Positions 7,636 to 42,299 of a stretch of 64,000 nt of DNA are shown piece by piece. Positions within the stretch are counted from its first letter, which is position 1; each line of letters begins with the position of its first letter. Made by a program: the position numbers and the translations under genes. The notes under the pieces are model-generated. The model was not told the origin of the DNA. It worked only from the letters and a program-made list of their open reading frames with translations, and made no database searches. Origin of the DNA: Schmidtea nova (Eukaryota); NCBI GenBank assembly GCA_044892505.1, contig CM097882.1, forward strand, positions 289,912,001 to 289,976,000, read 5' to 3'.

Positions 7636-7745
7636 GTTTAAAAAGAAAATTAAAATAAATTTATTTTCATTAAATAAAATCATTATAAAATGTAAAATAA
7701 ATAATTACGGTTACTATTTAGGATTAAGTTAATATAACGATTGTA

Positions 7746-7784
7746 ATACACACTTGATAAAGGCTGTGCCATAATATTGCGTAC
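7746..7784 (+). ncRNA. Degenerate minimal hammerhead-ribozyme-like motif of the Penelope pLTR
   Basis: ACAC-ACTTGATAA-AGGC-TGT-GCC-ATAA-TATT-GCGT; the GAAA core is mutated relative to the copy at 54768-54805. Confidence 0.4.
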
Positions 7785-9744
7785 TCGATTAAAGAAATTT
7801 TGGTCTATAGTCTTACCATTATGGGAATTATTAATATATTAATATATATATGTGTGTGTGTGTGTGTAAAAGTCAATGGAGAGTTATGTTATTAATAGAA
7901 TCGTAATAGTTGTGCGAATTCTATGTAATTTGTTGTTTGTGGTTTTGGCCGAAGAATAATATAAGTATGTGAGGTATTGTAGTTATGTAGTTGTCAGTTT
8001 TGTAATATATTTTAAAATGCTTATTATGTTCTTTATTTGGTGTTAAGAAGATTGAAGAGCCCAACAGAGTCTCCGGTAAGATATGCGTCGGGACTGTTGG
8101 GGTGAATGCGTGCGTGTGTATGTGATTGTGTAGTAGCAACAAATGAACCAACAACAGAAAATTGTTTAACAACTTTTATTTTTTAATAAAAATAATGAAA
8201 AGAACCTGTACTCACGTAATCTTCTCTATAGAAATTTATTTTGTCCAATAGCTTCTTTAATTAATTCTCTTCGCTTGGTTTATCGCAGTTTCTTTATTAA
8301 TTTTTTCACTTTGGTTATCGCAGTTTCTTTATTAAATTTTTCTTTGCTCATATAGTTAGTTTTTTTCTTTCCAACTTCCTTAGTTTTTCTGTGGCAATCA
8401 ACTTCTATAGTTATTTCAATTCTATTTTCTATTGATTTTTTTTTGAATTAGAAATTTTAATTTTTAATTTATTATCATTTAAAATCATTTTATCGACAAA
8501 ATTGCCAACCACATCAAAACAACAAAAAAGGGGGTTATCCGGTGTCCGATGGGACGTCCACAATAATAATCACACAATACATCATTAACAACAATAATCA
8601 TAAAAATACGGTATTAACACAATCTTTACTAATTTCAATATATACTTCGTTCAGTTGTTCACGTGAAATAATTTTTATTTATTGTGTTTGTATTTTACTT
8701 TTATGGTTTTAATAGTAACCCCAATAAAGAGAAAATGAACACAGAACAAAAATGAAGTTGATACTAATCCTGTATATGAAGAGCCATTGCCTTTACCAAT
8801 TGCATTTACCTATTGTGTTTACAAATTGCAGATTATTCATTCTAGTGATAAAAATAATTTCGCATCAGTTCACAATCTGTACCGTTTATTGCCAGATAGA
8901 GATAAAATTCTGATAAAAAAATGTAAAAAAATTGTTACTTTACAATAAAATCAGATAAATAAAGAAAGCGAATTTTAAGTTTCCTTTTCCCAATTTCCTT
9001 CAGATTTTCGATAGCACTTTTAAGTATTCTTATTTCCATTTAATATTTTAAAATATATTTACGTGATTTTATGCGGTTTTAGAGAATTACAGAACAAATT
9101 CAAAATTTTGTCAACGAGTTTTTATATACGGTTTAATGTTGAGCGTATCTACCGCATAGGAATTCGTAATATTTAATTCTTTAACTAACGTAAAAACTAA
9201 TGTTAGCACGGGCGTGCCTTCTAACAACTAAATAAAATAATAACTATCCATAAATTACTATATTTCTATACTTTACTTTCGCTTGTCTATTTAAAATGAC
9301 TTGAATTATTTTAAATAATTTTGAAATAGCTCTATTAATGCTTAAGGATAGAAGGGGTTGCAAATTCATTACGGAAATTAATATAAACATTGTGTTTTCA
9401 TATTCACTATAACTATTTCTGCAGCAAACGAAACAGATATACGCATTGATTTATGTAATGTTCTTAAAAATTCTCATTTTTTCATGATGCATTTATTTTA
9501 TTTCATAATAGCGCAGTTTTACAATATAGTTGTTATAAGAGAAAAATATTGTGACATAATGTAAAAGACATGTAAACTATCAAAATTCCATATATGCTAG
9601 TGATTTCATACTTGTCTAAAGAATGTTCTATTCGTGGCTTTGAAATTTATGAGGACTAAGTTTTTATTTCATCCTCAATTTTATTGAAGAATTTAACCGA
9701 TTACATCTGAAATTGCATTGTACTGTTAAAAAGTCACATTAAAC

Positions 9745-11137: not shown

Positions 11138-11220
11138 ATTTTATTAATAGTAAATGTTTAATAGTTTTCCGTTATCAGCTTATTTTTCTTTATAAAATCA
11201 CATTTGATGAATATGTATAG

Positions 11221-11717
11221 TTAACGGTTATGCAGAAGAACACGAAACCACAACCTATAGTTCTGATATGGTTGAGATGTGGTGTGAGTCCGCAATCAAT
11301 GAATTTAAGACCAGTTTCAAAACTGAGCCTGACAGTGTAATGAAAATTGGATCTGGAGAAGTTGTTACGGTTTGTCTATAAGTGTATTTATATTGAAAAA
11401 TTGTAACAACTCGTCATGTCCAGATACGGGTTCCGACCAGTGCAACAAATGATTATCTAGTCTGGCAATTTGTCACTGATGAATGTGATATCGGGTTTGG
11501 AGTGTCGGTTTCAAATGAGGTTTCAGGTCAGGCAAATACCACTGAAATTGTGCCAGTCTTGAGGCGTGATAGTCACAAACAAATATTCTGTGGCAAGATA
11601 AAACTTCATAAAAACTCCACTGGAAATGATCAGTTGTTCTTCCTTTTACGCTTCGATAATTCTTATTCTTTATGGCGTCACAAATGGCTCTATTATCGCG
11701 TTTGTTATTCTGATTAA
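11221..11717 (+). CDS. Last two exons (11221-11369 and 11424-11717; 54-bp GT-AG intron) of an ACBD3/GCP60/TMED8-type GOLD-domain protein; upstream exons not identified
   Basis: Spliced translation: ...MWCESAINEFKTSFKTEPDSVMKIGSGEVVT|IRVPT...LVWQFVTDECDIGFGV...EIVPVLRRDSH...LLRFDNSYSLWRHKWLYYRV. This matches the ACBD3/TMED8 C-terminal signature. AATAAA follows the stop. Confidence 0.85.
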
Positions 11718-13272
11718 CAATGTGCTTTCAATAAATGGGTTGTCTTTTTATTTTTATTCTAATAAATTTTTTATTTATTCATTAATAATTAATGTTTTCA
11801 ATTGAGGGTTTAGTCAGTGTTAATCCATTAAAATAACGGGGAAATAAAGAATCAGATAATTTATTATTTATTTTTAATTGGAGATTAGTCACTTATATTT
11901 ATAAGAAATTAATATCGAAATTCATAATTTAATCAAAAAATATACTATTTATAATAGTAAGTAGTTTAATTTAAGAAATAAATATATTGCGTTATAAAAA
12001 ACTTTGATTTTGACAATTTATGTAAAACAAAAATTAACGATCAACAATACTAATGAGTGCAATGCATCCATTCCTTGATTACATTATTTTCTGTAAATTC
12101 TGGATAACTGGATTTAATTATGTGCTACAATGCCCCGTATTTTTGGATATTTATTTGTCATTATCATTTTAAAAAGCCAAATTCTGAGATATATGTAGTT
12201 GTGAAAGTAATCTTAACCAAAATATCGCATTTATTAAATTTGATTACTCGTTAACTCTTTCACATTTTAAGTACCAATTTACTGAGACCGTTTTTTATTT
12301 ACTATTTTGTGCCCAAGCGGCGAACGATTTACACGCAACTGTTGTAACATGATTGTTTTGTTTGTAATATAATCTTCAAAAAAATGTGCCTTTCTTCATT
12401 TAAACAAATATTCAAAAACAAAGTTTGGGTACATCACGGAAATTTGATTGAAGATAAATTCTTTGGGGTAGCTACCTCAAGCAACATACGAAAAACAACC
12501 ATAATATTAGGTATTACAGTGAGAACTACCTCTTATGCTAAAAAGGTAAATATACCGTTCAAAAAAATTGTTTCTGAAACCTTTATGAATTAAGTCCTAG
12601 CTTAAAGATATGCAATAATATTAATTTAGTAAATATTGAAATAATGAAAGATGTTAATTAATAATTTATGTCAAATACACTATACCAGGGATTGCAAAAT
12701 TTTCAAGTCTCGTAAGAGACTTGTGTTGGGCCCGGTGAATCGCAAAACAATCTTAAAAAGATACAAATTAAACATAAAAATAAGAATAGAATTAAAGAAA
12801 ATAAATTACCAACCATCAATGAAAGACAAACAATCATCAAGCACGGAAAACCTGAAAGAAACAGCATAACAATACAAATAATAATAACAACACAGAACTT
12901 ACCGCTAGACCGAGATGAGAGAACTGTGTGATGAGTATTAAACCAACCAAGCGAAAATAAGACCTATCAAAATGTCCTCAAATAAAATAAGCACAGAAAA
13001 CAATAATTACCAATGAGCAATTGAAAACCACCGAGGCCTGAAATAGAAAGAATAATGAATAGCAAAATTACAATAAAATTACCGAAGCGAGAATGAAATT
13101 ATGAACGGAACAAATGCGGAGGTGGACCGCTCAGACAAGATGTAGAAACTAAATATAAAATAAAAATCACTGGAGCATAAATAAAAGAATAAACATCAAA
13201 CTCACCGGTCTAATAGAGAAAAGCACAACAATCAAAAATAAATGGCTAGAAAATAAACAACCGTGCTAAATT

Positions 13273-13443
13273 CTGATTGGCCAGAAGGCAAGGCCAAAAT
13301 AGTATAAATACAGCAGCGAAATCAGTATTGTCGTCATTATTTTTACCAAGTGTTACTTCACTAGTAAACTATCCTTCTTACTAGTTGTGAATCAGAATAC
13401 GATTGTAATTGAAGAATCTGAGTGAAATAAAAGGTACGTGAGT
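13273..13443 (+). promoter_or_regulatory. Pol II promoter and putative non-coding leader exon of unit A
   Basis: Inverted CCAAT (CTGATTGG, 13273), TATAAATA (13303), Inr-like TCATT (13334), and splice donors GTACGT (13434) / GTGAGT (13438). Confidence 0.6.
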
Positions 13444-14394
13444 TAGTTGTTATTGTTATTATTATTAACCCCTCATATTAAAATACATAAGTTTTGTCCC
13501 GAAGGTCAAACGATCTGACGGGATTCTCGGCCTCTCGGCACAATAAATTTTCATGCGAGGTGCTGATGCGGCGAGACTATAGGTGTTCTAACTAATTAGG
13601 AAGGGGAAGGGTGCACATAGCGTGTTCAAGTAATGGGTGAACAGAAGAGTTAAATCAGTACCCGCGAGGATGGATAGGTGGCCAGAGTTAAGGTCAAACC
13701 CAATCATTGTCAATGATAATAGATAACATAATAAATGCGAGAGTACGAGAGAAACCAGAATACTAAAGACTGAAGTCGATTCGTACAGCATTTAGGGATA
13801 GGAGTTCCCACTAAGTAGTCAACCCAGGGTCATGCTTTCCACAATAATAATTATCGTGTATGAATCCAAGCAACTACAAGACCTTCCCGATAAAAAAATC
13901 GACGAGCAAGTTGACCAAGGTTTGTTGAATGTTTACTGTATGATTGTTATGAAAATATGAGTGACTGATGATCAATGCGATATAGAGTTACGATCAGGCC
14001 TACAAAATAAGTAACATCTACGTTCTAGATCTGCGTGGTAGTAGTGTACAAATCACTAGTCAAGCCGATAGTAGTAGGAATGCGTAGAGTGGTTATAATC
14101 AAATACGACTGAATACTGTCATATGATCAGAATTTTGACAAAAATCTACAACAACTATGAGTAAACTCCACCAGGTAATAATCTTAAGAAAGAGTTTGTA
14201 TGATTAAAGCGAAAGCGTATGATGGGGTATGAATGAGGTATGGTGAAAAAATGCGTGCCACTGTTGACATGTGATGGAATGATGCGAGAAAGGTCTGACC
14301 CTTCAATTAATGCCTCTATAATTTAGAAAATGAAACACCAAAGAGTACAACGGCGGAATCTGACCCTTCAATTAATGCCTCTATAATTTAGAAA

Positions 14395-14958
14395 ATGAAA
14401 CACCAAAGAGTACAACGGCGGAATCACGCTATCCAAACATTGAATTTCGAAGATTCAAAACTCATTCCCACCGCCATAAAGCAGTCGGCCGAACGACACC
14501 TGAGAGCCTGGATGCGAGGCCACGTCGACCCAGCCACCCGAGGAACTATAGGGTCCTTCCAGTTAAGAGTGCGATGGGAAGGCGATCCGGAATGGGCACT
14601 ATTGTTACAGATGCCGAGTCGAGCCCGTAGCCGATGGTTTATACAGCTCGAGAACCTCCAAAGCCAACCCAAGTGGATATTAAGCGGCAATTCTATGACA
14701 GGTTCCGACTTCTACAAACTCGGATACATCCTAATGGATCAACCCCGATGTACCTACACGGGAGAAAGGCAACCCTACCTTCATGTACCAGGGAATGTAA
14801 ACGTAAAAACTCAGTTGGGGCCAGACGACGAAAGACTATGGGAAGTCTTTGCATATCAGGATCGGCTATGTTGGGACCCGTGCCCTGAGATCTACCAGTC
14901 AGACGGGAAAGGACGAGCGGACCGACAATTTAACCAAGACCTATTGGAGTTCTTCTGA
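14395..14958 (+). CDS. Unit A ORF1, 187-aa protein of unknown function
   Basis: Intact GC-richer ORF; acceptor TTTAG ends 4 nt before the ATG; AATAAA at 14998; homologous to decayed unit B ORF1. Confidence 0.7.
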   Translation: MKHQRVQRRNHAIQTLNFEDSKLIPTAIKQSAERHLRAWMRGHVDPATRGTIGSFQLRVRWEGDPEWALLLQMPSRARSRWFIQLENLQSQPKWILSGNSMTGSDFYKLGYILMDQPRCTYTGERQPYLHVPGNVNVKTQLGPDDERLWEVFAYQDRLCWDPCPEIYQSDGKGRADRQFNQDLLEFF

Positions 14959-15205
14959 AAAACTAGATGTGAAGGTGCCAGGAATTGTGATAAAATTAAT
15001 AAATAGCTGTACTAAGAACTCTTGTGTTTAATCTAGAGAGAATGATGCCAGGAGTGATGTTGATTATGAATGGGTGACTGTGTGATAAAGAGTAAAATGG
15101 AGTAAAGTGTCGTGAATACTAATGACATAACATTTGAGGGTAGAGGGGGGACATAAGACCGTAGATGAACCATAATACGATTGATCTTCGTTTCCTCCTT
15201 TTTAG

Positions 15206-15763
15206 ATGAATGCGAATAAAGATCGTGACTATAGAAAAGAGGCCAAGGAGTACAAGTTGCGAGTTAGGATTCTCGAGAGCAGACTACGGCAGCTAGGGGA
15301 GGAACATCAGCTGATGAAAACCACATGGTTTCATCTGGAACGAGTAAAGCTTATTCAACAAGCCAGGTTTAGAGCCAATCGAATTGCTGAGGAGCAAACT
15401 CGAGAAACTGCCGCCGTAAAGCTTGAATTTAACAACTATGTGAGGGCCTCCACCAAAGAATTCATAACGCAGCAGTTGCGGCCTCTCATCCGAGCCAGCA
15501 CTTTCAATCGCTGGATAGGGACCACCAACGTTTCTACGGGTATACAAACCGATATGGATTCGAGTTCCATGACGAATACTCCAATGAACATGTCTCAACT
15601 TGAGGGCTCCAAACGAACGAAGCGTCGGAATCGGTTAGGAGTGAAACGAAGACGAGAACGAAGAGAATATGCCGAGAGAGTCGGAATTGAGGCAGACTTT
15701 CTAAGTGGTCTTACCGAGAAACAATTGATCGCCGTAATAAATCCATCAGTGTTATTGAATTAA
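15206..15763 (+). CDS. Unit A ORF2, 185-aa coiled-coil protein with an Arg-rich (NLS or nucleic-acid-binding-like) C-terminus
   Basis: Intact ORF; polypyrimidine tract and AG directly before the ATG; AATAAA right after the stop; homologous to unit B ORF2. Confidence 0.72.
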   Translation: MNANKDRDYRKEAKEYKLRVRILESRLRQLGEEHQLMKTTWFHLERVKLIQQARFRANRIAEEQTRETAAVKLEFNNYVRASTKEFITQQLRPLIRASTFNRWIGTTNVSTGIQTDMDSSSMTNTPMNMSQLEGSKRTKRRNRLGVKRRRERREYAERVGIEADFLSGLTEKQLIAVINPSVLLN

Positions 15764-16299
15764 AAATAAATGTATACTAGTTAAATGGCTTGACTTGAAT
15801 GTTTGAGGTACGTATGTGAAATTTAATCCAAAGTTGATTAAGTGAAGCTGATTCATTTTGTGCTACAGGACACATCGAAATTGAACTCACCTTAGAGGAG
15901 ACAAAGAGAGCGAGTAAGAAGGGACCGAAATAAAACCACATAAACTTTCTAACGGTAGTGGTGGACCCGTGAATAAACAAGGGAATAGTAGCCGCAAGGT
16001 TGCTCACCTGCCTTGTCATTTCACAACGTTGATACAGTACTAACATGATGAGTAGTTAGGGATACATCATGGATGTCAGCGGGGAGATGTTTTTATGTTG
16101 GCGAGATCACCCTAAAGTATAAAATCAAATAGGATCTCAGTTGAACATCTAACTAACCCACCAGCACTTGGCTAGATTATTCCTCACGGTCTACTAGAAA
16201 AATTATTTAAATATCAAGAGTGCCTTTAACTTTAATCTGTTTATTTTATTTAAAAACAAACAAAATTGTAAGATATAAGTTTATATACCTACAAATAAC

Positions 16300-17200: not shown

Positions 17201-17751
17201 TTCAATTTCATATTGCTTAAGTAAAGTTCGAAACTGGCGCCGTTGTAGGCTTCTTCCACAGATGAAATTACAAACTTATTGAAAAAAGGATAAAAATATG
17301 GCAAACTCTGAGATGAAATGACATTGATAAGTTCATGGGTGGGTTCTTGAAATTTAACTTTTGTGTATTATAGATCCTTCATCCATAACCTTACATTAAC
17401 GAACTGTCACACTCGTATGCCCCTAACTATTCCCTAACTAGCTAGGTTGGAACTGCATACGGTGGCGGAAAAATGATGGACAGGCGAGCTTTGTCACCAA
17501 AACTTCTCTCCATTTATTTTCCTCAACAAGTCCGTGCTGCCGATGGAAGGTCTTACGCTATCATTCTCTAATTTCAGTCCTCTCGATACCTAATTAGCCA
17601 ATTTTATTCTTGTCTAATGCTATTAACAAATTCTTAATCTTGGTTGTCAATAACTACCTCAACCACTCCCATCCTTACTTTACAACCAAAATTCATTACG
17701 ACACGAAAAATAACTCAACACGAAGGGTTTTGGCTAATGATTTTATTTACA

Positions 17752-18307
17752 TTAAATTAACATGATTTCATTTAAAAGGTCCAGCTCTGATAGTTCATTG
17801 GGATGGTCCACTTGGGTAGCTAGTTGTCAGACGAAATCTCGTTTATGCCGCCTTTGCTTTGGACCTAATCGTCTTTTTCTGGAGCAGCCAAATAGGTTTA
17901 TTAATGGACTTGGCAGTGGCTGGATGGAAGCCTGTGGTGTAGGTACTAGGACTTTGCAATCAGTTCCAACAGAGATATATTTTGTCTCTTTGGCCGTCCA
18001 CCTTTGGGCCGTGATTGGTCTAATAAGGGCCCTGAGCTCCGTGTCAATGAATTATTTTGTTACTGCATTTAGGCAGTTTCGGAGTTCCAGCTGCACTGCG
18101 TCTAGTTCGGTATTGGTTTCTGTTAGCGACCCTTGCACTCTAGTCGTTTTCATTATTTGATCTTTCATTTTCTCTGGGGGGAAACCATTTTAGTTTTAAC
18201 TCATCATTAGCAGTTGTGAGACGCTTGATTTGGCGCTGCAATTCTCTAATTTGCCGATCTTGCCTTTGTTTTGTAAATTTATCCGAGAATTTCGTTCCAA
18301 TCATCAT
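17752..18307 (-). pseudogene. Unit B ORF2 (one frameshift, two stops), homologue of ORF 15206-15763
   Basis: Reconstruction: ...ELKLKWFP/EKMK...ELDAVQLELRNCLNAVTK*FIDTELRALIRPITAQRW...RKRRLGPKQRRHKRDF...ELSELDLLNEI. Confidence 0.75.
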
Positions 18308-18447
18308 TAAATTTCTACACCAAATACAGAAACACATTTAATTATTACTTAGACTTATTTGAAATAAAGTAAATTCGCATACAATTATAAATTTTAATGA
18401 AGCCAAAAAGAAAAAACATAAGTGGGCAATACATTTATTAAAGGATT

Positions 18448-18969
18448 AGTCAATCGACACCGAGTTTATCTCGATTTGAAAAAAATCGAGTGGATCTGCA
18501 TGGCCATTCTAATGGGACTGAGTGGGTTCACTAAAGTCGCCGAAGATTTCCTCTGGGCATCTCGTAGCGGTCGGATGACCGTGGTGAAAATTAAACCTAT
18601 CTCCTTTAGAGTTGAAGCTGGGATGAAGCCACAATAGATCATTGATTTTTGGAATCCGTCGTTGTCTAGGAGCAGAACAAACTAGTCTGCATACCCCGGT
18701 TTATACTCCTCGCCGATAATGATCGGCCAACTGGGGTAGCCACGGTACCACACATGATGTCGTGGGTGATCCCACACCATGAATGGGCAGGCGGTATCCA
18801 ACTCTTGTCTCCACTGACACATTTTTTGACGTACTTGCTGTAACACCTCGAAGGGTAGGAGTTTCAGCGGGCTTAGACATAGTTTTCTCCGGACACATTT
18901 TCCATCTTTTCGACCCCTGCGACTTGCAGCTGGTTTTTGGTAAATATCATTCTTTCGGGTCACTTTCAT
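18448..18969 (-). pseudogene. Unit B ORF1 (stops and a frameshift), homologue of ORF 14395-14958
   Basis: Motif pairs B/A: KLLP/KLIP, VWYRGYPSW/VRWEGDPEW, *FVLLDN/WFIQLEN, CPEEI/CPEI, DPLDFF/DLLEFF. Confidence 0.7.
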
Positions 18970-19454
18970 TATTGTCTGAAATAGTTTATAATATTTAAAT
19001 CCTTATTTGAATTATTTCTCTCATCGACTCTGATAGCCCATTCCTACATAACACTACTCTGCGCGCAAACTCTGACTAACAATACTTTCTAGGTTGCAAC
19101 AAAAACGGGTTTAATCTCTGGGGTAATAAAATGTCTTGTCTTACTACTCGGTTTGTTGATCATCAATCCTCCTTAATTAAATATGTTACGCGTGAAAATT
19201 AAAATAGTCAATAAAACATGGAGAATGACATAATTTTTAAAAATTAGTAAAACAGGTAAAAATTAAGACAAACGGAGTTAAAATGACATAATATGAAAAT
19301 TTAAAAACTAAGTACTAAATTTTTGGGAAATCTCGGAATAGTTAAAATTTAAATTATTTTAAAGTAAAATTAATTTATTATGAAATAAAATTTTTAACTA
19401 AATATTTCAAAATACAACATTTATATTTATTTAATAAATTTTTTAACAAAATCA

Positions 19455-19489
<35 letters not shown>

Positions 19490-20339
19490 CTATCCATCAA
19501 ACTACCACTATCAATCTAAGTACCAACAATAAACCGATCAACTAACTAATAATTTCATTACACACACAAATAATCAATCGACTAGTTACTTATCCGTTAC
19601 CAACTGACTCTATGTATTAACCAAATAAGAAAATTGTTTCATGCGTCAATCAATTATCTCTTTCTATTAACTAGATATCAACTAATCAAATCCCTTCAGT
19701 TAACAAATAAACCAAGTACTTACTTACCAAATAGTCCTACATACCAACCAGCTAGTTATATACACCAACCAATTGGTTCTATTCATTATTCCTATACCAA
19801 CCAACCAAGTACACTAACCAACTACCTAACTATTCATACTAACCAGCAACCAATTCTTTACTTACCAACTACTTCTTCACATCAACCAACTAACTCTATT
19901 CACAAATCAACAACAAACTAGTTACTGATCAAATACCAACTGATTCTATCCACACTCAACTAGTTAAATCAACTAATTGGATACCAACTGATTCTATATA
20001 TCAAACAAATAAATCTTCACTCTAAGAAAATTGTTCCACGTATCAATTATCTCTTCCCATTAACTAGATATAAAATAGGTCAATCTACAAACATATTCTG
20101 TCTTAATAAGTTTCAACCAACTAATTGCAATGAATCAACTAGATATTCTCTGAATTTACTGTCATGTATTACAAAGCTTTAGAAATCTATCATAAAAGAG
20201 ATAATATTACTCACAAATCTGACAAAGTCAAAATTTTATAATCAGTAAATTTTGTAGGAAATTGATTTCAAATATCATGACAGAAGTTAATTTATTACTT
20301 CGAATAAAATAATTGAATTAATCTTAAGTTTATTTTTTT

Positions 20340-23300
20340 GAAGTTTCTTTTTAAAGTGAATGAGCTTATTTCATAGTGAAAATGTTTTGGCTTTTCCATT
20401 TACAATTCTCAATTTACCCTAGTAAAATCTTTTCATTAATGAGAATTCCACTGAAAAAGGCTCAATCATTGGATAAAATTCAATTGGTAATTACAGTGAA
20501 TGAGGATAAATTCAGTTGAGAAACTTCACAAAAAGATGGGAATTCTTAAAATTCATTGTATTCAAAGTCAATAAATTGAAAAGCTTTTAAAGACGAAAAT
20601 AAGACTTTGATGGGACATTCATTCGAATGATTAAGGAAAAAAGTTATTATTAAGGAAAATATAATTCAAATTGTTAGTTTCTGTAGTTGAAGATACACAG
20701 GGTAAATTCATTAATTCCACTGAAAAGAGGGAATTTCATTGAAAGTCGGATAGTCAATTGAAAATGAATTAATCTTTTGAGACAAACCATTGAAAAGTAG
20801 AAAACCATTCTGTTTTGACTTCAATAAATATTTTCACCCATTTACACAATATTTCAAAGATTATTTCCGATATTGTTATCCACTAGCAGAACCTCTAGTA
20901 GAACTTTTAGTAGTAGAACCTTTTTTATGATAGTTTTGTATACAAAGGTTTCATATTATATTTCCACATATACCAATATTGTTGCATTTTATTCAATTTT
21001 TATGCAGTAGTAGAACCTTTGTTATCAGAACCCTAGTATCAGAACCTTGTTATGAACAGAGTGAATTAATGAAAAAACTAGTTATTAATGAGTGATTTCA
21101 TCAAGAAAAGTGTATTGATCTGTGTGAATATATTGGAGATATTTGATTGGTTAATTCTTATAAGACTGAGTGAATTGAACTTTCTTTACATTGTGACAAT
21201 AAATTTTATCATTTCATTCAAAGTGAAAAAATTCTAAATAGAAAATGACAAAGTGAAATTTTATTGTAAATCGGTAAAATTGATTTGAAAATTTTATAGG
21301 GGGCATCAAAATGGTTAAATCTTTAAAGGGAAAATCTTTTAGAAAATATATTCATAAATTTACTAGAAAGTAATTTATTTAATAGTTGATTAATTCTAAA
21401 GGTTCGATTGAATCTAATACAAATAAGTATCCTGTTTGTGAATCGCCAATGTATATATCATTCAAATAAGGGGTAAAAATGAGAAAAATCGATTCAAAAG
21501 GAGTAATATTAGAAAAGAGTTAATTTCCATCTGGAAAAATCATTAAAAAGTGCGTTAATTCAAATGGGTTAAAGAAGTAAAAATGGTAAGTGTATTGAAA
21601 TAGGTTAATTCTATGAAAAAAGTGTGTTGATTAAATCAGGGGTTATCCATTAAAATGGGTAAAATCATTTAAACAGGGTTATTTCTTAGACAGGGTGAAT
21701 TCATTCGTGGTTATATTATCAAAGGTTGATTCATTTAGATCTACTAAAATAGTAATCTTCAAACTTTCCAATCATCAAAAATCAATGGATATATCATTCA
21801 AATAGGGATATATAATACAAATAGGGTAATTTATTAGTAATTGCTCGATTTTTTCATTGAGAAATATCATTCAAATGAAGCTACAAAGAGAGTAAATAAC
21901 TCTTAAATTATAAATTATTCCAAAAATGATGGAAATTCATTAAAAAGGGCACAATGAAAACTGAGTTAAATATTTAAATGTAGGTAATCAACCTGAAAGG
22001 TAATTTATTGGTAAATTTGTCCATTTCGGAAATATTTTGAATATGGGTGAATTTATCAATGAATAGGAAATAATGAGGATGAAATGAATAAAATGTAGGG
22101 AAATTCAATTTAAAAGTGTGAAATCAAAGAGTAAATAATAAGAATAGATTAGTATTTGTAAAAGGAAAATGCATTCAGTGGGAAAATATAAGTAACAAAA
22201 TATTATTCAAGCGGTATATATTGATTTAGAGAAATTTACAATGAATAATTAAAAGAAAATTTAATGGAAAATAGTGTGTTAAAATATTCAAGTTTTGGTT
22301 GCTAGATAACTAATGAATACTTTGGCAATAATACAAATCATAAGTTGAATTTAGATGAAAGAGATTAGCAAATTTCAAGCTTTTATCTATTAATTTCAAA
22401 TACTAATAAATTAAGGAGTTTTTTGAAGATTTAATTGCAGTGAGTATTTAAGGAAGGATTTAATGATGGTAAAGTATTTTCAAAATTTAGATACTTATGG
22501 CTTTTTATTTTCATTTAAAGTAATATTTTGTAATGAATGATTTAACTAATTATTATTGATTTTTGGTGAATTGTTTGTGATAACTTTGAATTGATATCCT
22601 TTTAATTAACGGTGTGAAGAATCAATTTGAACATTTAATAAGTATCTAGAAGTATTTTAATTAGAAATCAATAAAAGTTTATAAGTTTTGATCATTTTAA
22701 TATGTTTAACTAGTTATTAAGATTTTTATAATGATTTGGACAATGATTTCAATAGAGCTTTGTTTAAAAGTCATTTGTATTTTAAATATATTTTAAATGT
22801 TTACAACTTTATTTAAAAAAGATATAAATTTAGAAACATGGTTATGTGTACTCTTTTAAAAAATAATTATCAACTAAAATTAATTCAATTATTTATTCTA
22901 AGTAATAAATCAACTTTTATGTCATGATATTTAAAATCAATTAGTTTCCTGTCAAATATATTTTAAATTAACTTTGATTATAAAACTTTGACATTGAAAG
23001 ATTTTTAAGTAATATTATCTCTTTTATGATAATTTTCTAAAGACTTAATACATGACAGTAATTCCAGAGAATATCTGGTTAATTCATTGACAATTAGATA
23101 GTTGAAATTTGTTAATAGATATAATCTGTTAGATGTTGTTAAAACATCTTCGGTTAACTAAAATTCTAAAGTCATCCAAAATATTTATTTAAATAAAGAA
23201 AATGTTTGTCTCTTTGAAGATATTTAAACAATTTTTTACCCTTTTCATTACTTTTAAAATGTTATGTCATTTCAACTCAGAGTTTGCCATATTTTTACCC

Positions 23301-25840
23301 TTTTTTCATTAGGTTTTAAAAATTGTGTCATTCTTTTGTCTTTGTAAAATTTTCCATTCTTTATTGCCTATTTTTAATGAACCACGTGTTTATTACCCTT
23401 TTTTCTTAAATATTTATTTAAAATTTCAGTTCAAATATTCTAGAGTCCCTTTCTTGTCTGAAGAAATTGTGGGAGTTGAAAATTTTATTTAAAAATATTT
23501 CAATGTATTTTACTTGTTTAAAAGATTTACAAGTGTTTTTTATTTACCATTAAATCTATTTTTCAGTTTAAAATTACCAGAATCGCTTTTTGCCCTAGAT
23601 AAATCTGAGATAAGAAAATACAGTATAAAATACCATACTAAAATTCGTTATAGAAAAATATCTGACCATACTTACCATTAGAAAATACTGAGACCAAAGA
23701 TTACCATTCAAAAATATCAGGACGAAAAATTCCTATTCAAAAACTCAGAGCTCCTTTTTCGCCCTAGAAAAATCTGAGAGTTGAAAATCTTATTCAAAAT
23801 ATCAGGTCTGAAATATCCTATAGAAAGAACTGAGACCAAAATTCCCTATTCAAAAATCCAAGACCGAAATTCTCAATAAAAAATACTGAGAGTCCCTTTT
23901 TGCCCGAGAAAATTCTGGGTGTAGAAAATCCAATACAAAATATTAGGACCAAAGTTCCATATAAAAAATACTGAGACCGAAAAATCGTATTCAAAAGTAC
24001 TAGACCAAAATTCTCTGTTCAAAATACTGAGACCAGAAGATCCTAATTAAAAATACCAGACCAAAAATCCCTATTCAAAAACCCAGAGTCCCTTTTGCCC
24101 GAAAAAAGTCTCAGAGAAGAAAATCCTATACAAAATATCAGGACTAAAATTCCCTTTACAAAAGATCCGAGGTCAAAACATAGTGGCCTTCTAGATCACT
24201 TTTTTAAGGGGGTTCGGGGGTTGTGAGCTAGAGGGCCACTAACTACCTACTAGTGTGGCTAGTGCATGTGTTGGTATCATAGCAAGATCTATTTATAATT
24301 TAAAATAAAAAAATTATCTTCATTTAAAATAAATAATTTAATCAATACATAAGGTAAATATACACACTGACAGGCAGAAAGTACAAACAACTTGATTAGT
24401 TGATTTAGTTCTTTGAGAATGACACATCGATAATTTAAAAATATTGTTACGAAAAATGGTAACATGAAAATATTTTGGAAAATACGCGCATGCAGCCTTC
24501 GATAACTGAACGCATGGGCTACACATAGTGTCTGAACGACTGATGGTAGAGTTCAAGAAAAAAAGAGAAAACCCGACACATACGTCGAGATAAGGATGAA
24601 ACGATAGAAAAGAGGCATCTCAGAACAGAACACACAATTTGAGTGCAGATTGGATTTACATACGAAGGACCGCACTAGAATTTAATGGGAAAGACCATTG
24701 CTTGTATATTGAATACGAAAAGCATGATCAAAGAATAAAATCGGTATTAAAATAAAAAGAACAATTTATTAAAAGTGTAGGAAAATTTTCCATTGAAATA
24801 TCGTAAACATAACACAGATATGAATGAAAATAGAATTTAAATTAAATTTTATTGTTTTTATCAATCAGTTAACGCGCGCAGAAAGTGGATACACACATTA
24901 TTTAATAGAATTAAAAATAAATATTTAGAAAATAAATAAAATGAATTATAAAATTTAATTTACAAAAAATAAATAAATAATTCATTTATTAAATAAATAA
25001 TTTAAATTTAAATTTAAATAAATATATATAAATTAAATTACTAATGTTTCAATTTAATGAATGGAATGCGTGAGCAAGGGCATCATTTAGAAATAGTATA
25101 AATAGACGCCGAAAAATTATAACTATCACTTCTTTTTAATTTCTACTTTTGGAGTCGTCTGTTTTCATTCTACCAGCAATCACCAGTTTCGATTGATTTT
25201 ATTCAGTGGAGCGAAGCAAGCATGTAGGTTTTATTTTGTAAGGATTATGATGGTAACTATTACGCGGTAATTTGCAATTTGTTAATAAACTTTTGAGTTA
25301 TAATTTTGTTTTTGTTAAATATTATCATGCTCTATCAAATGATTCCCGATTAAAATGATTTAGAAGGGGCTTTGTTGGTTCACAAGCCGCGAGTCCCCAG
25401 TTGGTTGTAAGTGCTTGGACCCAATAGTCGGTTAGAATCTTCGTACCATCGTCTTATTTAATTTTATAGGATGGCGAGGGAAAAAGGAAATTAAAGGATG
25501 ATTATTCAGATGTTTTTCGGAATAAATAGATATGAATCTGAGATAGGATAAAGAGATAGAAAGTTAGGAATTAATAATGCGAAAGGGCCGTAAATATGAT
25601 ATGTGCATAAGTCCTTCTATCGGCAGCAGGAACTCGAAAGAGATAATATAGTGAGGAGTAGTTTTGGCAGCAAAGCTCACCTGCTCACCAGATTCTCGAA
25701 ACCGTGTACATTACTGTAATGCACAAAAATGGTGGATAACAATTGTCATTTTTATAATTTTTATATTATGTTGTTAGCACCGTCATTATTATGGTCGGTG
25801 CCCTCGCTGTCACCGAGGACCCCCTTGTGGTTTACTTGCA
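20340..25840 (+). mobile_element. Unit C: 3' portion of a large LTR-retrotransposon-like element (AT-rich internal region, repeat array, PPT, LTR-like segment 24222 to about 25840)
   Basis: G-rich tract AAGGGGGTTCGGGGG (24206-24220) then TGTGAG; TATAAATA at 25097 and Inr-like TCACT at 25126; ends near TTACTTGCA after two hairpins; homology to units A and B. Confidence 0.55.
23560..24180. repeat. Degenerate array of about 30-bp repeats immediately upstream of the PPT
   Basis: Recurring CCTATTCAAAAATACTGAGACCAAAAT-like units with periodic GAGTCCCTTTTTGCCC variants. Confidence 0.8.
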
Positions 25841-26068: not shown

Positions 26069-26715
26069 AAAATCGAACGAAAAAAAGAAATTATATCCCT
26101 ACAATAATTAATATCCTTACTAAAATTAAAGCTGAAGATTTCGGTTTCTCAAACCCTTACAGTCAATTAATTCCTTGTAATAGCTTTTTGCCTATTATAT
26201 ATCGAAAATAAAAAAGTTTATAAAGAAGATAAAACCCATTACAAAATCGAACGAAAGAAATTATATCACTACAATAATTAATATCCTAACAAAAGTTAAA
26301 GCTGAAGATTTCGATTTCTCAAACCTTTATATTCAATTAATTCCTTGTAAAAGCTTTTTGCCTATTATATATCGAAAATAAAAAAGTTTATAAAGAAGAT
26401 AAAACCCATTACAAAATCGAACGAAAGAAATTATATCACTACAATAATTAATATCCTTACAAAAGTTAAAGCTGAAGATTTCGATTTCTCAAACCTTTAT
26501 ATTCAATTAATTCCTTGTAAAAGCTTTTTGCCTATTATATATCGAAAATAAAAAAGTTTATAAAGAAGATAAAACCCATTACAAAATCGAACGAAAGAAA
26601 TTATATCCCTACAATAATTAATATCCTTACAAAAGTTAAAGCTGAAGATTTCGGTTTCTCAAACCCTTGCAGTCAATTAATTCCTTGTAATAGCTTTTTG
26701 CCAATTTAATATCGA
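26069..26715. repeat. Tandem repeat, 170-bp unit, about 3.8 copies
   Basis: ACAAAATCGAACGAAAG recurs at 26241, 26411 and 26581, with a variant at about 26069. Confidence 0.95.
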
Positions 26716-28619
26716 GACATTAAAGAAATTTCAAAGAAAGTTCTAAAAAAACGCAAGAGAAGGTTCGAAAGAATTTAATAACGAAATTTTAAAAGTAAAT
26801 ATTATCTATATTATCTAAATAAAATTTTATTAAATATTTTTATTTGATTGAATATTATTTTATTTGTACCTCCATTCAAACAAAAGCATTACACAGCATA
26901 CACCCCGAGTATCTGCACACTTATATAGCAAGACTCTCTCGGGCTCTACAACGTCTTCTAACACACACACACATATACACAATTTAACTTAACCTAGATT
27001 GTTTGAATTAAGACTATATAAAACGTTTCAAAACAATTACCAACATGGTACAAAGGAGTAACTATGGGTACAAGAGTGAATCAATTAACATTTATGATGG
27101 GATGTGGGGTTTGTAATCCCTAGAGACCAATAATAATTTAGTAACAGTCCATACCACCAACAATATAGATTTCGACGAATATATTTTCAATTTACCGAAT
27201 TACAAAAAGGTTCGAATGGTTAAAAGTAAATGAATGCTGAATGAATAAGTTTATTTGAACAAATGTTACTGCTTGGAATTTTGTGATGATTTAATAACTA
27301 ATAAAGATGTTTTTGAAGTTGTAAAATAATTCCCACTATCTTTTTATAAGAGATTAGATTAAGTGCGGAACCGAATGGGCATTATACCATCTATCGACCG
27401 CCTTTGAACTGACTCGAGACATGCAATCAATTATAGGTCCGATTCAGTCGGCGTTTACATTTTGGAAATGTCCACCCATTTGTTGCAATACCAACGTTAC
27501 GCCGGAGTGGGCAACAATATGGTTAAATAATGTTTATATGTAGGGTTGTTGAGGAATAGAGCAATAATAACAGTCAATGTGATCTGGTTTATCAGAAACC
27601 CACAAATAGTATTTTATGGCGGATGTAGACCAAAAGGTACAATAGATATCTACACAAATCATCCTAAGGACAAAATTGACATGGATTATTTTGAAACAAA
27701 ACCTGAAAATTAGGCAGATCCCTGCAAAGGATTTTCTTATAGATAAAAATCTGATGTATTTAATGTACTTTTTTCTTTGTTTGAACTCTACGATTTGTGT
27801 TTATGCTATTCTTTGGCCCTACACGACAGAAATCAAATTTTCGGTTTGCACAGAAAAGAAAAATGCTTAATAAATTTACAAATAAATTTATATTTACTAC
27901 TTTATGTATTTGTGAGTAATATTTGTTTTCTAACATTCAATTTACATAACAATTATTAGATGTAATTGATCCAAGATGGCGCATTGCATGTAATGTCAAT
28001 GTTAACAATTATTGGAACTCACACGCAGGTCACAGTTCGAAATATTGTTGATTACTAATTAAAATGTATAATTTTATTTTATTAAGTTATAATAAAATCG
28101 ATGATGCAACAAAAAATATCTTAAAAAATTATAAATGTACTAAAATTAAATTTTTCTACCGTATCCGAAAAGTTTCCATAAACACAAATGCAAGTGAAAA
28201 CATATAAGCTTATTTCAATTAAATTTTACTAGTGTTATTTTCTGTGGTCTTCCTTTTATAATCTTATATAACGTGTAGTGCCTCTACTTTATGTATATTT
28301 AGAAATTGACTAAATTTGTTAAATTTATATTATTATATACTAAATTATTATATAAAAAATAAAGAAAAAGATTTAAAAAATGTTTGTTTAAATAACAAGA
28401 AAAATGCACGTTCAAAAAAGAGTACAGAAAAGTAAAGATGGAGTTCACCAGAGATTCATATGCAATTCATCACCTAGCACCAGAACGACAGCACAACCAA
28501 TATGATGAACTGATCAAATCCAAAGCACAACTGTATCAGAATTTCGTATTTAATAAAATTTTATTGGTGTTATTTATGGCGTATTTTGTAGTTACGATAT
28601 AATGCTATTCGGATGATAT

Positions 28620-32469: not shown

Positions 32470-35400
32470 CTGCTTTTCTTTCATAATCCATCGATACAAA
32501 CAAATATTTTTTCTTTAATTAAATTGAATATCTAAATTAAATTAATTATCACATTCCCCCGTGATCAGTACGACGAATCAAACTCGTAATGATCAAGATA
32601 GGAAGGCTTCCTTCGGTTGCCAGCCCAACGCGTGCCTTCCTTACTCATTTCTGGACTTCTGATGTCAACCTGATTGTCTTCAAATTCGCATTCGACATTG
32701 CTGGATTTGATAGGTTGATTTGGCACCACTCGGATGTCTGCTACATGACGCGGTACTTCGTCAAGCTCTATGTTGGTAGGTGAATTTATGCCAGTGATGA
32801 TTCTACTGGGCCACTGAGCAGTGCATTTGGCCGGAACTGGCTTTATAACAACCTTCTGACCAGTTTTACATTTACCTGGTCTAGATATTACGCGCTTCTC
32901 CTCGACACCTCTGTGAAATTTCCATTGTTACTTAAATAGACACTATGATGGAGCTATACTCTGATTCTTCGCGTCTTTGGGTGCCATGTTATACCAATAA
33001 ACAATGTCCCGTGGGTCTGGACGACTCCTGGCTGCATAGGATTTTATTGTCCGGTGGTTTCTCTCCACGATCCCATTCCCAGATGGACGGTAGGCACACC
33101 TGTATGTCGGCTTTACCTCCCATCTACAACATAAATCTTATAAAGATTTAGAATGAAAACTAGGCCCATTGTCCATGAGTAGCTCACGAGGTGGACCTCT
33201 CTCTCGAAACACTTCTTCGAGAATTTTTACAATATTTTGTGCAACTTCATATGGTATCCTTCTCCAAATGGCAAATCTGCTAGGCCCACAATCAACGATA
33301 GTCAAGAAAATGGATCCCACGTAGTGCGTTACATATACACCTAGTCTTTCCCAATTTTTATCGACCCCTAATGATCCATTTTCCCACTTAACTGGCGATG
33401 GATCGATAGATTTTCATTCAATACAATTTCTTACCACATTCTTTATGACGTCTCGTGGGGTGTCTGGGTTTTCTAACTGAATGAAATAAATAGATTTTTC
33501 CAGACCAAAATGGTGTTTGCTGTGACGGTTCTTTATTTGTTCTGACGATAAGCCCACGCAGGCAAAAGACTCTCTAGACTTCAACCACCTCTTTGGAACG
33601 CGTGTCAGTATATCTGCTCGGTTTTCAGCTGATTTCACCAATTGTACCCAAATAAGAATTCTGTCATTTTCGATAATCTCTTTTATTATTCCCAACCGAC
33701 GTCTAATCAGAGTCTCTGAAATTCCATGAACACTAATCCTACATACATTGTTAAGAACTGTTCTCAGCCAGCCTACTACCGTCGCCGAATCCACCATCAG
33801 CTTGATTTTTTAACGCCCCATTTGATTGCTAAGTTTACGCCTTTAAGAACTGCATCGAGCTCAGCGATGTTTATATGTGAATGATCATCACTTTCCCTGA
33901 GCCAAGTTGAATCCTCCACGACGTGGCCATTTATCACTAATACGACACCCAGCGCTAAACTGCTAGCATCACACCATAAAGTACATTGATCCCTAGTGTT
34001 TACAGTCCAGGTTCCTTTGACTGGATCGTCCAGTTCAATGAGACTCATCACTTTAATCAATCTCGATTCGCACTCTGCTCAGACGAGATCATCCCAATTT
34101 GTACCATCCGCAATTCTCTTGATAACTGCAAGCCACTCTGAGCCACCCCGCGACCGGATAACGCCCAATAAGCTTTCCACAAATAGAAAATAATTTACGC
34201 CGAGTAACTTTACCTTCAATTGGGTCAACTGGATTTCCTCTTGACCATAACAGGTTACCGTGACGATTGCGTTCAATTTTTAAACCAAGAACCTTTGTAT
34301 CCACTAACAGTTCCGCTGGCTTCGTTACTAATCCATATTGAGCCAAATGTTTCACAACTTCATCGATACTGACCATACTCGTGTTACCAGCTATGTCATC
34401 AATGTAGTGATCTGTCGCGTTCAGGATTCGCGAATCGAGGCTCAGCACCTTTCTCAACACCAAGGACATTATCTTTGGAGCACAACTAAGACTAAATCAT
34501 AGTCTTGTAAGAGAATACGTCTTCTTTTTGTAGCGAATCCTTTGGAATTCCCAAAGATCTTTACTTACATGCAACTGTAGATAAGCATTTTTTAAATCAA
34601 GCATCGATAGCTGTTTTCACACCTATCTCCATCGTTTTAGACTCTCCCCACAAACATCACTATCGCCAGTGTGACTCTTCACAGATTCATTGAGTTCCCT
34701 AAAGTCAATAACGGGTCGAACTTTTCCTTTGTTTTCTTGTACTGCAGCTAGAAGAGGAAGAATTCCGCAACCGGTTTTTTCAGCGGGGATTAGCCAGCCT
34801 TCCATTATCCATCGCTCCACTTCAGCTTCATATTCTTGTCGCACTCCAGGCTTAATTGCGTATTCGGCAACGTTGTTCCGCAATATAGGGGGTTTGTCTT
34901 TCCATTTCCAGGATATTGTCCACTTGTCTCCTTCAAAACTTGCAGCGAAATCCTCGTCATCAATTTTCACTTGTTCTTGAACTAAAGCCGGCATGGATAT
35001 TCTAGTGCATTCACCAAACTGTACGCCATAATTGTCAATTGAGACTCCCCCAAGGCGTTCAATCGTATCGAAACCTAAAATAACATCCACTCCGGCTACA
35101 AGATTCGTCTTTATTAAGCAATTTAACCAAAAACTTGTTCCTCGAACACCGACTTTCGCCTTCACAGTGGACTCTTCTACCATCTACTGCAACAACAACT
35201 CTGGCTTCACCACTTCCTTCTGCACAGATACGGGAAACAATGGTTTGCGAGCATCCATAATCAACTAGTCCAGTGCACGATTTTCCATTCACTCTGAGTC
35301 TGACAAGTACTCGCGCCATCCCTGACATCACTGAGAAACCGCTGGCGCTCCAGTTTCTCTTCTGGCGTTTCCCTGTGTGTTTGAAGAGCATTGTCTCGAC

Positions 35401-35570
35401 AAATGCCCTTTGATTCCACATGTCCAACACTCTTGAGAGGGGCATTTATTTTTGAAATGTCCGGATTTTTCACATCCGTAGCAAGGTTTGACTTCTTTAC
35501 CTGGCGCAGAATCACTTCCTTTCACTGCAATTAGACCAGTGCAGCCGTTTTGTTCTGATATTAGAAGGTT
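32470..35570 (-). mobile_element. Decayed, 5'-truncated Ty3/Gypsy retrotransposon (gag knuckles, PR, RT, RH, IN, PPT, start of 3' LTR)
   Basis: Two CCHC knuckles (35328-35525), protease LVD(Y)GCSQT, RT RPVIDFRELN and YIDDI, RNase H WCDAS...NIAELDA, integrase LLMDNGPSF. GGGGAA|TGT at about 32553. Many frameshifts. Confidence 0.92.
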
Positions 35571-38498: not shown

Positions 38499-38708
38499 NN
38501 NNNNNNNNNNNNNNNNNNNNNNNNNNNNNNNNNNNNNNNNNNNNNNNNNNNNNNNNNNNNNNNNNNNNNNNNNNNNNNNNNNNNNNNNNNNNNNNNNNNN
38601 NNNNNNNNNNNNNNNNNNNNNNNNNNNNNNNNNNNNNNNNNNNNNNNNNNNNNNNNNNNNNNNNNNNNNNNNNNNNNNNNNNNNNNNNNNNNNNNNNNNN
38701 NNNNNNNN
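38499..38708. other. Assembly gap (210 N)
   Basis: Run of N. Confidence 1.
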
Positions 38709-39071
38709 TGACCTTCGCATTCAACAGTATTACATTTTAAATAAATACTTTTAAATGCAAAGGTCACACTATAAGATGAGAAACCATATATTTGGATTCA
38801 GAATTTAACAAATAGAATTTTAACAAATCTATTTTGGTGTATTGCAATATTAATATTATAAAAATAAAATCCAAAATAATTATTTATATTTTAAATCGAG
38901 TGTTCCCAGTACGGATATTTTTATTAATTAAAAATCTTTGAATTTAATGAATACAAAAACTTATATGAATACAAAAACTCATCCCCCATACTTAACACGT
39001 TGGCAGCCTCGCCTACGACTCACTCGGGGCACCGGGAGACCGACAACTGCCTGTGTGCATTTTCTGTTTGA

Positions 39072-39838
39072 CGGGTATATCCCAAACTTCTTTGGCTCTG
39101 GACCCACTTGGAAATATTTTTGACATCTCGGGACCCACTGAATAAAATTAAGCATCGAGTACTCAGTAATATCTCATAAATTGGGTCTTGGTTCATCGCC
39201 TGAGTCAGTTGAAATAAATCCGTAAGTCAGATTTGATTCATAATATTTAATCTTCGGCGGACATGTCTTCTTTGTACTCAGAGGTCGATTATCAAGAGTT
39301 GAACCAGCGTCATTGTCCGTCTCTGACTCTGAGCTATGACCACTCACACATGAGAAAGATTCGCGTTTTCGTTTCAAAAATTTATCCATATTTATTTTTT
39401 TCGAATATTTTTAATAATTAAAAAATTGAATTTGTTACGTTTAAATAAACATTGTTTATTATTTAAATAGCAGCTATTTTTCAGGTAAACAATACAAAGT
39501 AAAATAATTTGTATATTTAAACAAGATGGCAAATAAATTAAATTTAGATGTTATTAATATTAAATTTGCAAACATTTCTCAAAGCTTTTATAAAAAAACT
39601 TCCAATGCATAATATAGCTTTTATTTTCGATCATTAGTATAACAAGTAGAAGCTAGCTATAGCCCAATCATAGTCAAATGTTGTTGTTCCGCTAGTTATA
39701 CCGGAATAAAGTATGAAATTTGCGGGTTACTGAAATAAAAGACGAAAAAAGTTATGTTTTCCTAAAAACTTTCGCGACCCACTTGCCAGAGCTTGGCGAC
39801 CCACTTTTGGGTCGCGACCCACAGTTTGGGAACCTCTG
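39072..39838 (-). mobile_element. Internally deleted hAT (Buster/Charlie-like) element retaining the transposase N-terminus (39174-39389)
   Basis: Terminus CAGAGGTTCCCAAACTGTGGGTCGCGACCC with subterminal GCGACCCAC repeats; MDKFLKRK...YGF...PRP N-terminus; degenerate opposite TIR TCCCAAAC at about 39080. Confidence 0.8.
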
Positions 39839-40560: not shown

Positions 40561-41010
40561 AAAAACTACGCTTAAAGTAAAGAACACCGAAATTGAATAT
40601 CGGCATTAATGGGAGTGTTGCTATTTATTAAATTTAAAGAGCACTGAATCAACCAAGAATTTATTAGTCGATAAATAACCGACATCATGCCCGATGTCAT
40701 CATATTTGGCTACATCAACCCCATAAGCAGGACATTCCCAATATCATGCGACAGCAAATAAATTCCAAGCTGGATTGACCAATCAAAATGCAATAAAATT
40801 CACGCAAAAAAACAAGTTAAATAATTGTTTAATAAACACAATAATCGTTTGTTAAAATATATCCACACGCATCCCTAATTATCCATTAACAATCAATAAT
40901 AAATAAACAAATGAAACACTCAGGGCAGCCAAAAAAGAAAACTAGAAAGCTTGATTTATTCAATCAAGAGTTGTAGAAAATTATTTTTATCTCGATAAAT
41001 AATTGTCTTG

Positions 41011-41937: not shown

Positions 41938-42299
41938 TTAAAAAATTTTTCAGGTAAACAATACAAAGTAAAATAATTTGTATATTTAAACAAGATGGCA
42001 AATAAATTAAATTTAGATGTTATTAATATTAAATTTGCAAACATTTCTCAAAGCTTTTATAAAAAAACTTCCAATGCATAATATAGCTTTTATTTTCGTA
42101 AAATAATATTAATTAATGTACTCTAAAAACTTTTTCAAAAGATTAACACTAAATATTCTTAGAAAATAGTCAGTCTTATTGGTAGAAGTTATTTGTTTGA
42201 GTAAAATACATTCTTTGATATGTCTGATGATCATTGAGGTATTAGAACAGACGTCCTTAACCGTTTGCTGGGTTACAGATGTGTTGGTGTACTACTTAT

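Follow-up and report, generated by a model that had tools for sequence, protein, structure and literature searches.

A probable solo long terminal repeat with two predicted spliced genes in the planarian Schmidtea nova

Solo long terminal repeats (LTRs) are generally regarded as remnants without coding capacity, able to contribute a promoter at most. The locus described here raises the question of whether an LTR can itself hold genes; two spliced protein genes inside a lone retrotransposon end-piece would, if true, be unusual. The window analyzed, a 64,000-nucleotide stretch of the Schmidtea nova contig CM097882.1 (assembly GCA_044892505.1, positions 289,912,001 to 289,976,000 of the forward strand), has a GC content of ∼30% and is crowded with decayed mobile elements, which on the basis of Pfam matches include Tc1, Penelope, Tigger, and Polinton types and pieces bearing a reverse transcriptase (RT). 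Penelope-type (GIY-YIG) pieces lie in several orientations at 5,565-7,833 and 54,700-60,400, and a 239-bp direct repeat (55,509 and 59,081) flanks an RT-bearing element. The Polinton remnants at 51,831-53,932 consist of a protein-primed DNA polymerase B on the plus strand and a double jelly-roll capsid on the minus strand. A small, broken Gypsy-like gag-pol (zf-CCHC, RT, DUF7047, and rve) is found on the minus strand at 32,500-35,500, and no link between it and the units A to D described below was seen. A host gene that looks intact, with short introns and CHMP4/Snf7-like by eye, occupies 41,010-41,940 of the minus strand; the adjoining 154 bp recur as an exact copy at 39,476-39,629. A GOLD_2 domain fragment (E = 3e-22), presumably ACBD3/TMED8-like, is located on the plus strand at 11,210-11,717. 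Arrays of a 16-bp minisatellite (62,149-63,205) and of a 170-bp repeat (26,084-26,715) are also present, as is an N gap (38,500-38,710).

An earlier note on this DNA had placed a two-gene cassette inside the LTR of a giant retrotransposon and had flagged the interval 24,206-25,840, which contains unit C. The features of this region are as follows.

23,682-24,080, plus strand: 141-bp tandem array upstream of unit C
24,206-24,221, plus strand: G-rich tract, either polypurine-tract-like or a left terminal inverted repeat
24,222-25,840, plus strand: unit C, a 1.6-kb LTR-like unit devoid of open reading frames (ORFs), with a TG start, a TATA box at 25,097, a predicted intron extending to 25,469, and a 3' module at 25,585-25,840

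Unit C indeed opens with TG (24,222) directly after the G-rich tract. The promoter context said to be shared with unit A is likewise present, with GCAAGG at 13,288 and 25,074 and AAATAGTATAAATA only at 13,297 and 25,091. This match is modest, ranking second among 2,839 window tiles behind a chance match in the second ORF of unit B, and apart from AT-rich noise A and C display no further DNA similarity. The 3' words reported earlier were also located: GCTCACCTG, common to A and C, only at 16,002 and 25,675, and TTTTGG..CAAAGCTC, common to B and C, only at 25,662 (plus strand) and 17,502 (minus strand). At the 3' end, the match between B and C is beyond chance (185 bp, 65%, E = 3e-13, z = 17.6), and that between A and C is, taken alone, weak (z = 3.2). 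The ORF stub that C was thought to keep turned out to be a frame of seven codons (25,471-25,494) with no detectable relation to either ORF of unit A, and no trace of these ORFs was observed in any of C's six frames (88/100 and 69/100 shuffles scored as well). Since C is without a trace of either ORF, the flagged interval holds no cassette, and the question of genes inside an LTR rests on units A and B.

The earlier assignment of B and C as 3' ends is sustained in part. Both close with the family module, and AT-rich repeats are shared upstream: blocks at 22,875-23,334, further upstream of C than the tandem array, are common to the DNA upstream of B in the orientation of the units. B, however, carries that repeat downstream as well. 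Speaking against the assignment are a 65-bp repeat on both sides of B, the absence of a convincing target duplication, and the G-tract of C, which is also an inverted repeat of its right end. For C, none of 45 pairs of ends gave a target duplication. Most likely, C belongs to an ORF-less subfamily and is a 3' LTR lying behind a tandem-repeat 3' region. The joint between the array and the start of C, seen in four of four runs of contigs, agrees with this and argues against C being a solo unit inserted in the AT-rich array and bounded by the inverted repeat AAGGGGGT (24,206) and ACCCCCTT (25,819), an arrangement in which the G-tract would not be a polypurine tract. That arrangement would account for the pyrimidine interruptions in the G-tract, which is not a pure purine run, and for the 8-bp inverted repeat: the complement of the 8-mer occurs once in the window, at the right end of C, with further imperfect pairing. 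The ends so defined, however, lack TG/CA and an exact duplication, and the C-run is accounted for by family homology. We regard it as rather unlikely.

Unit A is delineated as follows.

12,720-12,723, plus strand: left CTTG, a 4-bp target-site-like repeat that closes the end hairpin of a hAT-like element
12,724-16,166, plus strand: unit A, a solo-LTR-like element of 3,443 bp (TGTTGG...CCAGCA), defined by its ends, depth steps, and module homology
16,167-16,170, plus strand: right CTTG copy, beyond which the hAT-like element resumes, with diverged multi-copy contigs from 16,233 on

The extent of ∼3.4 kb from TG given previously thus agrees with the measured length. The insertion site lies inside the hAT-like element, presumed to be of that class from motifs recognized by eye; the flank gave no Pfam match. 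The ends of A form an inverted match at five of six positions, and self-BLAST revealed no long terminal inverted repeat between them. The CTTG duplication is seen in one copy only. With both ends of A fixed, the chance of a 4-bp flanking repeat is 0.003-0.007. With the ends not fixed, 6 of 912 TG/CA pairs carry such a repeat and two of those six have inverted ends matching at five of six positions, and the CTTG repeat taken alone is not discriminating. The left end, directly after the end hairpin of the hAT-like element, begins with a 9-mer that is common only to the start of unit D. The similarity between the starts of A and D was equalled by 82 of 500 shuffles and is not significant alone, and the left end of A is weaker than the right.

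The right end lies in a module of ∼240 bp that terminates A, B, and C and has four further copies in the window.

27,372-27,608, plus strand: module copy M27
42,550-42,313, minus strand: module copy M42, which ends unit D
46,612-46,850, minus strand: module copy M46, with CCAACA as its last letters and the start of D 7 bp further on
54,537-54,695, plus strand: module copy M54, truncated at its 3' end
42,313-46,604, minus strand: unit D, which starts with the 9-mer of A and ends in M42
∼44,260-45,500, plus strand: unit E, a related piece inverted inside D, with a TATA-like box and a donor

The similarity between M42 and M46 (86% over 237 bp) stops at a word homologous to 16,155-16,166 of A, and the right end of A is therefore fixed without use of the flanks. 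A profile built from A, B, and C alone finds M42 (E = 8e-11) and M46 (E = 1e-5); A versus M42 gives a z-score of 9.8. The reverse profile, built from the four M copies alone, does no better than E = 0.05-0.06 for B and C and fails to detect A. AATAAA or ATTAAA is present near the module start in four of the seven copies, and the signal of C lies just upstream of its module. The 5' edge of the module is sharp in all four M copies, and the DNA upstream of them is unrelated. Module patterns matched public viral or metagenome contigs at 0, 1, and 3 loci; these were rejected as chance because only the seed matched. Units E and C share GCGCGC and CCCCAGTTGG words (6 of 500 shuffles as good). Inverted pairs are also formed by B and C and by M46 and a piece designated X. 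On the minus strand the end of M46 and the start of D lie 7 bp apart, head to tail (46,604-46,612), an arrangement like that of a two-LTR junction or of an insertion beside an LTR end. No ORF1 or ORF2 traces were observed in D, E, X, or the DNA upstream of M27, and for D none of six pairs of ends gave a target duplication.

Seven copies with mostly unrelated DNA upstream, together with the CAA-rich ends of M42 and M46, might mark the module as an independent 3' end of the SINE-like or Penelope-like kind, and A, B, and C as unrelated pieces ending in it or carried by it. Penelope-like elements have a hammerhead ribozyme in their terminal repeat. Neither that ribozyme nor any other Rfam match to the module was found at the gathering score, the sense strands showed no folding signal above shuffles (z from -0.5 to -1.8), and no target duplication around the M copies was seen by eye. 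A and B, moreover, share both their second ORF and the module in the same order. We consider an independent module highly improbable.

The edges of A were also approached through depth, which here denotes the summed depth of contigs from four runs of one study and not copy number. In run X1 the depth rises at the left edge from 53 to 821 to 2,440, and at the right edge it falls from 157,033 to 1,048, compared with a depth of ∼35 for contigs that match exactly. The steps at both edges have the same shape in all four runs of that study, and in all four every bin of A lies well above single-copy depth, marking it as dispersed and multicopy. The highest bin of A is the 3' module (15,920-16,166), on which contigs pile up far beyond single-copy depth. 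By our reading of the loose ends seen, contigs of run X2 that differ from the window at 16,224 and 16,227 end 58 and 61 letters away, that is, at 16,166. These statements cover 15 of 917 joints and 24 of 9,041 loose ends, and a joint across the empty site of A may be among the remainder. The highest summed depth of the stretch covered belongs to the AT-rich repeats at 19,468-20,413 and 23,252-24,197. In summary, the CTTG repeat, the inverted ends, the module-defined right end, and the depth steps of A are the anatomy of a solo LTR, in one copy.

The features within unit A are listed below.

13,288-13,322, plus strand: TATA-box context, common to C, of modest significance
13,434-14,326, plus strand: predicted leader intron from a donor at 13,434 to an acceptor before ORF1, from sequence inspection
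14,395-14,958, plus strand: ORF1, 187 amino acids
15,206-15,763, plus strand: ORF2, 185 amino acids, with a coiled-coil-like N-terminus, a conserved middle, and an Arg/Lys-rich C-terminus
15,808-15,868, plus strand: predicted short intron 3' of ORF2
15,920-16,166, plus strand: conserved 3' module with AATAAA at 15,929 and 15,972

Both ORFs sit between the TATA box (13,303), a predicted promoter, and the AATAAA signals, a predicted poly(A) site. Each starts within 3 nt of an AG acceptor that is preceded by a pyrimidine tract, the ATG of ORF2 being directly 3' of its acceptor. Frames of at least 185 residues arose in only 6 of 1,000 shuffles, and judged by sequence the ORFs of A are real. The acceptor and ATG of ORF1 fall within an exact 65-bp tandem duplication (14,294-14,425); this duplication and one of 73 bp in D (45,751-45,900) are either private recent events or assembly artefacts. 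The joints at 13,640-13,744 and 15,830-15,903 were not counted as splicing because they lack GT-AG ends.

Unit B contains both ORFs in the order of A, in broken form.

17,325-19,225, minus strand: unit B, left end undefined
18,969-18,466, minus strand: broken ORF1 with one stop
18,307 to about 17,752, minus strand: broken ORF2 with one frame break and two stops
17,580-17,325, minus strand: 3' module of B

The homology between the ORF2 sequences of A and B is firm (E = 5e-12). By part, none of 1,000 shuffles was as good for the C-terminal portion, 5 were for the middle, and 85 for the N-terminal portion. That between the ORF1 sequences is weak (44 of 2,000 shuffles as good; E = 0.13). Another copy is represented by a contig that is ∼80% identical to ORF2 of B over 368 bp, with 73 substitutions and no gap. 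At a base in the internal stop of B, 94-100% of the depth differs from the window, and this stop looks private to the copy. Given that the same 65-bp repeat is present on both sides of B, the unit may have inserted into such an array and lost its left part. The search for a target duplication of B gave eight matches in 1,152 pairs, all with at most three of six inverted end positions matching, and none was convincing. Neither ORF had a match at the Pfam cut-off. For ORF2, no protein relative was recognized among 256 candidates and another search gave 0.76 at best; one repeat-like match at E = 1e-4 was taken as coiled-coil noise. For ORF1, none of 34 candidates was a relative, one further search gave values of 0.90 or less with low recognition, and another gave no match. 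A fold search with ORF1, its query an unusable single-sequence model (pLDDT 34.7), gave nothing at E = 0.001.

The ends and introns of A can be read in another manner. Ginger-type elements, which are moved by an integrase-like transposase, have TGT...ACA ends, a 4-bp duplication, introns, and terminal inverted repeats of tens to hundreds of base pairs. A non-autonomous DNA element of this type would accommodate the TG ends, the 4-bp repeat, the predicted introns, which survive easily in DNA elements, and the lack of a primer-binding site (PBS). The inverted ends of A, however, comprise only 6 bp, the promoter-leader-poly(A) layout and the one-sided conservation of the 3' module fit an LTR, and a G-tract and a tandem array stand in front of C. 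We judge such an element very unlikely. A rearranged structure would instead consist of a short LTR (12,724 to ∼13,542), internal spliced accessory ORFs, and a piece of a 3' LTR, the CTTG repeat being due to chance. Two features of the predicted leader intron would suit it: depth is high at a spot near 13,556, and at 13,598 a run of 14 purines precedes TG. Moreover, the CCCCAGTTGG word of C and E reads CA-GT-TGG. In addition, when LTR elements carry extra ORFs, these are as a rule internal and spliced, as far as the portions of PMC5408684 and PMC3485330 at hand show. The left part of A, however, is repeated nowhere within A (self-BLAST), the junctions do not resemble tRNA ends, and the flanking repeat agrees with the family-defined right end. 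A rearrangement appears quite unlikely. The junctions in question are those of the form CA-N0-4-TGG, of which 23 were inspected within units A, B, and C or close to their edges. None was like a tRNA 3' end by eye, in accord with the earlier failure to find a PBS; the window contains no tRNA genes with which a candidate could be compared. Solo and 3' LTRs should lack a PBS-like junction; no 5' LTR was seen.

The reading we prefer, and consider probable, is that A is the gene-bearing solo LTR of a large Gypsy-type retrotransposon. The CTTG repeat, the inverted ends, the family-defined right end, and the insertion in another transposon lend support to the view of the earlier note that A is solo-LTR-like with its ORFs inside, downstream of the promoter. 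From the sequence we infer that A is an LTR whose promoter is used and whose transcripts are spliced. In the proposed scheme, the element would have integrated into the hAT-like element, and recombination between its LTRs would then have left A. Units A, B, C, and D would represent LTRs of very diverged subfamilies with a common ∼240-bp 3' module and variable DNA before it, the module providing a poly(A) signal and a U5-like end. The TATA promoter, ∼580 bp from the left end of A, would drive a leader exon of ∼100 nt (donor at 13,434) that splices to either of two acceptors, yielding an ORF1 or an ORF2 mRNA. The last small intron would be removed and the mRNAs would end at the AATAAA of the module. 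Because the promoter, the acceptors, and the poly(A) signal all lie inside A, the predicted cassette would need nothing outside the LTR.

Where the R region would begin is a further matter. Should the genomic RNA start at the TATA box of A, R would be ∼2.7 kb long and would hold both genes, which we regard as possible, somewhat more so than the variant that follows. A variant of the solo LTR reading, covered by the same overall assessment, places the ORFs in U3, which would be long and variable and contain a promoter of its own; the module would then be the true R-U5, and genomic RNA would start there. The mouse mammary tumor virus (MMTV) sag gene and the accessory genes of foamy viruses provide parallels for genes in U3. 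The module has the usual size of an R-U5 region, and the position of its poly(A) signals and its sharp 5' edge in the M copies agree with the variant. By eye, however, the DNA immediately before the module contains no TATA-like box in any of A, B, and C, and C possesses a TATA box, a leader, and an intron before its module with no ORF for them to serve. We think this variant fairly unlikely.

An intron-containing LTR could be copied only from unspliced RNA, and a role like that of Rev or Rex is thus the first guess for ORF2. With its coiled coil and Arg-rich tail, the protein may be a nuclear regulator of the element's own RNA, a suggestion that is speculative and held only tentatively. Alternatively, and equally as speculation, it may be a transactivator or a silencing antagonist.

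Taken further, these observations would describe a planarian lineage of giant retrotransposons whose LTR has taken in two spliced accessory genes entire, between promoter and poly(A) site, in a 2.7-kb intron-containing R. Every solo LTR would be an expressible two-gene unit, one product would be an Arg-rich regulator of unspliced element RNA, and the transposon GLT2 would be a unit of the same kind. We put this forward as a doubtful but possible picture. If true, recombination between LTRs would scatter protein-coding cassettes through the genome rather than silence the element, and how a multi-kilobase, intron-containing terminal repeat survives reverse transcription would become a mechanical question.

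Among known systems, Burro (GYPSM1) comprises giant Gypsy elements of Schmidtea and Dugesia with a total length of more than 30 kb, an internal region of up to 25 kb, and tandem repeats drawn within the element, according to the portion of PMC6431247 at hand. These sizes imply LTRs of several kilobases, like unit A. In that same portion, the named accessory ORFs of Burro lie upstream of the polyprotein and none within the LTRs, unlike those of A (PMC6431247). One Burro-type feature is present in the window.

47,900-49,088, minus strand: broken Burro-type fragment, in which a BH2-like motif and a Monjiviricetes fusion domain (PF24664, E = 2.9e-21) occur in that order in one frame

The order of its parts is that of Burro, in which a BCL2-like motif precedes an in-frame mononegavirus-type fusion domain, as set out in the available part of PMC6431247. 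A Burro element has its giant gag-BCL2-env-pol polyprotein between the LTRs. For the BH2-like part, the top PDB match is Bcl-xL, at only E = 0.99, and the fusion fragment gave no matches among 350 longer proteins. Module copy M46, also on the minus strand, lies 1 kb downstream of the fragment; any link of the fragment to M46 or to units A-D is putative.

The plant Gypsy elements Ogre and Retrosat2/RIRE3 have LTRs of more than 3 kb, many solo LTRs, and extra ORFs of unknown function, as given in parts of PMC6431247 and PMC3485330. Those ORFs occupy the internal region or lie upstream of gag-pol and are, in the portions at hand, not LTR genes as proposed for A. More generally, the accessible text of PMC3485330, PMC5408684, and PMC6431247 places the extra ORFs of long-LTR elements outside the LTR.

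For GLT2, a transposon of S. mediterranea, a probe is provided in Table S1 of PMC8532177. Inspected by eye on the forward-primer strand, 400 of its 485 letters display an AT-rich intron, an acceptor, and a coiled-coil frame. GLT2 reads W-L-x-x-E-K, with the tryptophan 43 residues after the acceptor, and ORF2 of A reads W-F-x-x-E-R at residue 41; in ORF2 of B, W-F is at residue 41 and P-E-K follows in the next frame, past the break. The identity between GLT2 and ORF2 is ∼20% by eye, with a rough hand score not above coiled-coil noise, and the apparent likeness is offered as a lead. GLT2 is, we assume, an LTR-class Repbase entry, and its possible link to A could be tested in the model planarian with existing RNA data. 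It is de-repressed in neurons after smedwi-2 RNAi, as reported in PMC8532177, and its structure is not described in the accessible portions of that paper or of PMC10954484. Similarly, the portions at hand of PMC11410931, PMC13238120, PMC10954484, and PMC8797187 contain nothing on LTR structure.

Judged by title and the opening of the abstract, none of the papers found describes a planarian LTR that holds genes; the original Burro account and Repbase may already note such genes. In retroviruses, ORFs within or overlapping U3 include MMTV sag, HIV nef, and foamy-virus tas/bet, all of which are expressed from spliced RNA. The ORFs of A showed no sequence similarity to them. The retroviral ORFs are positioned upstream of the main LTR promoter, whereas the single TATA box visible in A lies before its two ORFs, each of which has its own acceptor.
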